From: Escherichia coli
GTDB taxonomy: Bacteria; Pseudomonadota; Gammaproteobacteria; Enterobacterales; Enterobacteriaceae
Assembly (NCBI RefSeq): GCF_003334305.1
Contig: NZ_QOWS01000089.1
Reading direction: 5' to 3' (one strand)
Length of the DNA: 221 nt
Positions within the stretch are counted from its first letter, which is position 1, and every line of letters begins with the position of its first letter. This document shows, piece after piece, positions 1 through 200 of this stretch. The translations under genes were made by a program, and so were the position numbers. The notes beneath the pieces were generated by a model, which saw only the letters and a program-made list of their open reading frames with translations, was not told where the DNA came from and ran no database searches.

Positions 1-181
1 ATTGCTTCAAGAAATCGAGATGTGTTTCCCCGAAATCCTCTATATCTTCCCAACTTTCTGCACCAGAAATAACGGCAAAAATAGTCAATAGTAGGATGCC
101 TGACAATTTATGCTCTACTTTCCAGGCTTATCTGTAATCGGGAATAATAGAAATATGTTCCATCAATTTTTTAAGTTCCAT
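1..181 (-). pseudogene. ISAs1-family transposase (H-repeat-associated-protein-like), 5' portion; frame interrupted by in-frame TAA at 130-128; 3' end lies beyond position 1
   Basis: Minus-strand ATG at 181-179 with an AAGGTG SD 5 nt upstream. Translation is MELKKLMEHISIIPDYR, then TAA (130-128), then the same frame is open for 42 codons to the window edge ([42 protein letters not shown]). Both parts match, from memory, the N-terminus of E. coli H-rpt/ISAs1 transposases ([33 protein letters not shown]...[19 protein letters not shown]), where the stop position is Gln. No alignment was run. Confidence 0.6.
128..181 (-). CDS. Literal 17-codon ORF (MELKKLMEHISIIPDYR*), interpreted as the truncated N-terminal fragment of the transposase rather than an independent gene
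   Basis: ATG 181-179, SD AAGGTG at 192-187, stop TAA at 130-128. A second in-frame ATG lies at 163-161. Any product would be a non-functional transposase fragment. Confidence 0.3.
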   Translation of the reverse strand: MELKKLMEHISIIPDYR

Positions 182-186
182 TTGTT

Positions 187-192
187 CACCTT
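187..192 (-). promoter_or_regulatory. Shine-Dalgarno sequence (AAGGTG) for the transposase start codon
   Basis: Plus-strand CACCTT at 187-192 is AAGGTG on the minus strand; 5-nt spacer (AACAA) to the ATG at 181-179. Confidence 0.6.
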
Positions 193-200
193 ATTTATGT

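Follow-up and report, generated by a model that had tools for sequence, protein, structure and literature searches.

The 221-nt stretch of Escherichia coli DNA analysed here (‘the window’) is the 5′ end of ybfL, an ISAs1-family (H-repeat, ISEc1-like) transposase pseudogene adjoining the RhsC element. The reading we favour, to which we give a probability of about 0.93, is that of a known nonsense pseudogene: a C-to-T transition would have converted Gln codon 18 from CAA to TAA, ribosomes from the native ATG would stop after 17 residues, within the domain PF13808 and before the DDE domain, so that no functional transposase would be made, and the TAA-bearing 5′ block would have been copied among H-rpt paralogues by homologous recombination or gene conversion. 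The downstream part, repeatedly overwritten from intact paralogues, would thereby stay open and well conserved in appearance. The defect was already known, ybfL having long been annotated as a dead copy, and the feature is an ordinary one.

All 221 bases of the window are identical (100%) to E. coli K-12 (MG1655) at the same locus, codon-18 TAA included, and with K-12 ybfL differing nowhere from it the window is ybfL or an identical allele of another strain or locus. The K-12 match forms the beginning of a 1,137-nt CDS, labelled by PGAP ‘ISAs1 family transposase; internal stop’, with the truncated copies ybfQ and ybfD on either side, rhsC-ybfB-ybfC upstream and ybgA-phrB downstream. Since the K-12 gene order ybfQ-ybfL-ybfD-ybgA has been published, the CDS can be identified as ybfL, which is termed a pseudogene in the literature. 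It is the middle unit of three tandem H-repeat copies after rhsC (the ybfQ-ybfL-ybfD array), its flanks being the other H-rpt copies, and restoration of Gln at codon 18 gives exactly the UniProt entry YBFL_ECOLI, ‘Putative protein YbfL’. The literature searched on ybfL, H-rpt and ISAs1 contained incidental mentions only, the original 1990s H-rpt papers being outside the scope of the search.

The transposase frame is on the minus strand. Translation of the window's reverse complement bore out the first-pass annotation, which had described an ATG at 181-179, 17 codons, a TAA at 130-128 and a frame thereafter open to the window edge. The ATG start (179-181) is at the position common to the intact paralogues, and 5 nt before it is the Shine-Dalgarno sequence AAGGTG (187-192), with an anti-SD duplex of −4.9 kcal/mol. 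The 17 sense codons, MELKKLMEHISIIPDYR (181-131), are the entire product of normal translation from this ATG. After the TAA come 42 sense codons (codons 19-60, positions 127 to 2), ending ...HLDFLKQ at position 2, with position 1 being the first base of the next codon, and the frame runs on past the window to codon 378. Examination of the gene beyond position 1, which had been proposed as a place to look for further frameshifts or stops, revealed none: the full ybfL frame is 378 codons, ended naturally by the stop at codon 379, and has at codon 18 both its sole internal stop and its only lesion. A rough calculation puts the chance of 360 open codons following the stop at (61/64)^360, or ~3e-8, and homology is an independent argument against a chance origin.

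Other candidate features of the window can be dealt with briefly. Two small plus-strand ORFs, of 29 and 30 aa, at 2-91 and 110-202, run antisense to the frame of the transposase; there is no support for their being genes, and they were put down to chance. An Rfam search of the window gave 0 matches, with no RNA family or structure detected, and promoter- and terminator-like sites within it are at chance level; on these grounds a non-coding RNA or regulatory element in the window was rejected. On the sense strand inside the coding region, at window 15-33 (L001:6189-6207), TCGGGGAAACACATCTCGA and the T-rich tail after it make up a weak terminator-like hairpin, which is probably incidental. Another is at L001:5809-5827, in ybfQ, and the regional count of such hairpins is 3 versus 1.0 +/- 1.0 in shuffles.

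When codon 18 of ybfL is repaired to Gln the protein scores 414.6 bits against NF033564, the NCBIfam ISAs1 transposase model (cutoff 70), and has the domains PF13808 (DDE_Tnp_1_assoc, residues 8-94, E 9.9e-32) and PF01609 (DDE_Tnp_1, residues 102-343, E 7.1e-31). The part of PF13808 within the window (1-160, minus strand) contains the stop, which is consequently in the N-terminal domain, ahead of the DDE catalytic domain. Terminal inverted repeats with 18-nt arms (L001 5898-5915 and 7170-7187), 89% complementary, span 1,290 nt; both arms are outside the window and the left one is conserved in paralogues. The uninterrupted frame that goes with an ISAs1 transposase gene is broken here by the TAA at codon 18, and what the domain and repeat comparisons point to is a member of the ISAs1 family by descent, but a pseudogene. 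Transposition of H-rpt in E. coli is reported never to have been observed.

What do copies with an undamaged frame have at codon 18? The first-pass annotation had given an intact motif with Gln (CAA) where the stop is, and CAA is indeed what ybfD, the ISEc1 copies and L102 have at codon 18. Comparison with other copies, which it had suggested, gave CAA at codon 18 in every intact paralogue: six of them (the RhsC-orthologous copy of O15_8X, yhhI, ydcC, the O157:H7 copy and two other ISEc1 copies) together with the further intact copy in L102. The ybfQ motif is PDYRQAWKVVHKLS, with ybfD and ybfQ both having PDYRQAWKV, and PDIRQQGKV is the reading in a more distantly related ISAs1 member, at the yafV locus. 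That a single C-to-T change in a Gln codon would suffice is confirmed by L024-L026, which are intact at the same locus and which over 1,407 nt (the CDS with flanks of 140 nt on its 5′ side and 130 nt on its 3′ side) have one difference from K-12 ybfL, T/C at CDS nt 52. This is window position 130, where the plus strand has A here and G in the intact alleles, so the TAA at 128-130, in the context TAA-G, is one base removed from the CAA of all intact copies. Real assemblies have, at the RhsC-ybgA-phrB locus, a gene for precisely the repaired protein. No intact homologue ending after PDYR, a finding that would have pointed away from a nonsense mutation, came to light, and the CAA alleles at 130-128 belong to other strains and do not replace the TAA of this sequence. 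Relative to intact orthologues and paralogues the lesion is a disabling one, and the earlier description of a nonsense-inactivated ISAs1/H-rpt copy has the support of the codon-18 stop, the one-base intact allele and the PGAP ‘internal stop’ label. The direction of the change, from C to T, and the accompanying loss of function are what these comparisons suggest.

The stop is part of a distinct 5′ haplotype block which occupies window 1-194 (minus strand) and extends from ~−13 to ~+220 relative to the ATG, that is ~40 nt beyond the window's left end, so that window and block nearly coincide. The block is ~6% diverged from ISEc1-type paralogues, and its ~15 differences from them comprise 11 that are synonymous, 3 nonsynonymous and 1 nonsense. 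Among TAA copies it hardly varies, L014 and L015 having one or two changes of their own. In TAA copies AAGGTG precedes the ATG with a 5-nt spacer, and in intact ISEc1-type copies the consensus AAGGAG with a 6-nt spacer (window 182-194, minus strand), so the block carries a weaker ribosome-binding site too; the intact CAA ybfL alleles L024-L026 also have the weaker AAGGTG site.

The identical TAA block is present at three chromosomal loci: RhsC (ybfL), the T6SS-associated Rhs by yafV and, in strain ECONIH4, the ydcC position. All three positions of the RhsC array (ybfQ, ybfL and the ybfD-type truncated copy) have been found with it. Unequal crossing-over and gene conversion between repeats, both tandem and dispersed, would be expected to give such a multi-locus distribution, and gene conversion is, on the pattern of sequences, the probable spreading mechanism. 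At the ydcC position in ECONIH4 the TAA block (L102:2808-3944) is directly downstream of an intact CAA ISAs1 transposase (L102:1532-2668). L069 has the TAA block in the ybfQ position. The metagenome contig OBYM01010071.1 (L082) has two TAA matches 380 nt apart, in the ybfQ-position and ybfL-position copies, and the presence of the stop in both adjacent copies suggests that it was copied into the neighbouring tandem unit. Exchange was probably bidirectional, since an intact ISEc1 copy, L023:1621-2757, with CAA at codon 18, has ybfL-type states at nt 39, 127, 150, 171, 219, 261, 297 and 301.

Array structure itself varies. Some strains have one tandem unit fewer, the remaining truncated copy being the ybfL 5′ block fused to a ybfD-type truncation, with either TAA or CAA: L012 and L013 (TAA) and L016 and L017 (CAA) have at the RhsC locus only ybfQ and one truncated 759-nt copy. 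In strain L027, whose ybfL is intact with CAA, the gene of an IS5-like transposase (5229-6209; 326 aa, DUF772 plus DDE_Tnp_1) is immediately 3′ of ybfL, in the position of the K-12 spacer and the start of ybfD. At the yafV locus the first tandem copy (L002:4812-5938, L006:1891-3017, L011:1812-2938) is a divergent ISAs1 member with a GTG start, VSIQSLLDYISVIPDIRQQGKV..., frameshifted and with multiple stops, which is immediately upstream of the TAA copy and by the T6SS-linked Rhs and ydcD.

The condition of the frame after the stop can be counted against a pseudogene. It is fully open in 11/11 full-length TAA copies from complete genomes and in 33 of the 50 metagenome TAA copies with room for the full gene, and the differences among TAA copies show a strong third-codon-position bias. 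The variants outside the first paralogue panel, which also count against the pseudogene reading, are synonymous-rich as well, with 18 synonymous versus 12 nonsynonymous singletons (P ~1.5e-4 against neutrality). The bias and the synonymous excess were nevertheless rejected as evidence of selection on the downstream ORF. Twenty-five of 51 variable sites have states common to the six intact paralogues of that panel (21 synonymous versus 4 nonsynonymous), the ‘private’ alleles are in linked blocks that recur in different combinations, and the two blocks on which donor matching was tested agree with donors allele for allele: that of L078 has 14/14 of its alleles in an intact CAA transposase and that of L063 8/8 in another, N-terminally truncated, H-rpt copy. 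Such donor-matched blocks would be variation imported from copies that evolved under constraint, and as such are not evidence on constraint in the TAA copies. The synonymous-rich singletons could mean constraint on a truncated product, though the tested blocks trace to donor paralogues. The other 17 of the 50 metagenome copies are disrupted further, 11 of them by ybfD-type truncation, 5 by truncation at nt 757 with other sequence following, and 1 by a break at nt 933. Contigs that contain the gene in part add one further truncation at nt 757 and one indel near nt 157; L051 has an extra stop at codon 60, in a contig whose coverage of 1.6x means that it may be erroneous.

Could translation resume after the stop? 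Reinitiation at the TTG of codon 26 or that of codon 32 following UAA-18 would yield a truncated transposase of ~347-353 aa, which, much like the Tn5 inhibitor, might be a trans-inhibitor or domesticated protein. We consider this improbable, at long odds. It would accord with the frame being open in every full-length complete-genome TAA copy and in the 33 metagenome copies, with TAA being far commoner than CAA on the same haplotype, and with the whereabouts of the in-frame TTGs, 21 nt (codon 26, 104-106) and 39 nt (codon 32, 86-88) past the stop. Reinitiation after early nonsense codons in E. coli is also said to have been established by classical work with lacI and T4 rIIB. However, the start sites are poor. 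The first-pass annotation had noted the TTG at 106-104, confirmed here as codon 26 and the nearest possible restart, and had doubted its use for want of a good SD; that doubt was justified, its SD duplex being −3.3 kcal/mol versus −4.9 for the native start. The TTG of codon 32 has −2.5 kcal/mol, a third candidate is the TTG of codon 58, and the first ATG is only at codon 94. The product would be without the first 25-31 residues, losing the first part of PF13808. Furthermore, the apparent conservation is accounted for by donor-matched conversion tracts, and some TAA carriers are truncated or broken further.

Nor do the deposited proteins help that case. Gene callers start at the TTG of codon 26 to give a product of 353 aa, and at that of codon 32 to give one of 347 aa, and truncated products of 347 aa are deposited on at least 1000 contigs, of 353 aa on 579 and of 285 aa on 121. 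These entries (P0016, P0017 and P0001), variously named ‘hypothetical protein’, ‘H repeat-associated protein’ or ‘ISAs1 family transposase’, are automatic calls, most likely gene-calling artefacts past the stop and not evidence of expression.

A related proposal, which on our analysis has an equally slight chance of being right, is that the TAA 5′ block is a silencing allele which spreads by gene conversion and is favoured, either through transposase shut-off or through an Inh-like truncated inhibitor. If true, it would account for the allele's presence in about half of E. coli genomes and at three loci, for the mostly intact downstream frame and for the rarity of CAA on the same haplotype.

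Decoding of the TAA as sense, whether by programmed readthrough, an ochre suppressor or other recoding, would give full-length transposase, but has as its sole support the frame still being open, and is very improbable indeed. In E. coli few contexts terminate translation as efficiently as TAA-G, and no bacterial genetic code is known to read TAA as sense. The intact paralogues have an ordinary CAA, so the stop is not a conserved feature, and the Rfam search of the window was without a match. The first-pass annotation had thought recoding unlikely, and nothing has been found in its favour.

There is finally the matter of whether the TAA is in the DNA at all. It is: the codon-18 TAA is a real, heritable and common E. 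coli allele. An even sample of 60 complete-genome records, taken along the whole ranking of the 5,208 that matched, included 27 (~45%) with the exact TAA-bearing 221-mer; 2,662 records have at least 99% identity to the window, and TAA carriers amount to about 2,300-2,600 complete E. coli genomes, many K-12 assemblies included. The few fetched copies with one or two mismatches keep the TAA. A sequencing or assembly error for a true CAA, which the first-pass annotation had offered as its alternative, would be an apt way to arrive at a sequence one base away from an intact allele, and alleles with CAA do exist, but an identical 221-mer in ~2,300 independently finished genomes, a TAA 31-mer in 69 metagenome contigs and a PGAP stop flag consistent across the copies examined leave it virtually no chance, and population frequency excludes it. 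The TAA allele is far commoner than the CAA allele of the same haplotype: with the T reverted to C the window has only two perfect matches among complete genomes, both truncated ybfD-type copies, and the two genomes concerned are of the type with ybfQ plus a 759-nt truncated copy. Occurrence of the block in other species was considered and rejected. Neither the TAA 31-mer nor the same-haplotype CAA 31-mer was present (0 matches) in ~100,000 species-representative genomes, and on that account the block appears confined to a subset of E. coli.

Beyond annotation hygiene the importance of all this is small. Public protein sets contain well over a thousand auto-called truncated ‘proteins’ from past the ybfL stop; they also contain the conceptual, Gln-repaired YBFL_ECOLI, which does match real intact alleles, those of a minority of strains. 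The population picture is of a nonsense allele copied between paralogous IS copies, with conversion from intact copies keeping the rest of the frame pristine, and it counsels caution before function is taken as proved by an open frame with a synonymous bias. The movement of the stop-bearing block between paralogues illustrates gene conversion neatly and is no new kind of feature.

The nearest known relatives of ybfL are the intact transposases of ISEc1/H-rpt (yhhI at RhsB, ydcC at RhsE and others), which have in common with it a 378-codon gene and 95-98% nucleotide identity, PF13808 plus PF01609, an element of ~1.29 kb bounded by terminal inverted repeats of 18 nt, and a link with Rhs elements. 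They differ from it in having CAA at codon 18, AAGGAG with a 6-nt spacer in place of AAGGTG with 5 nt, and other bases at ~15 sites in the first 220 nt. The Tn5 inhibitor, Inh, is an analogy for the reinitiation proposal only, and ybfL is not a member of its kind. Inh is a transposase that is without its N-terminal DNA-binding part, is made from an internal start and blocks transposition. Unlike ybfL it has its own promoter and an ATG start, belongs to another IS family and is experimentally demonstrated, whereas ybfL offers only weak TTGs and is known from sequence.
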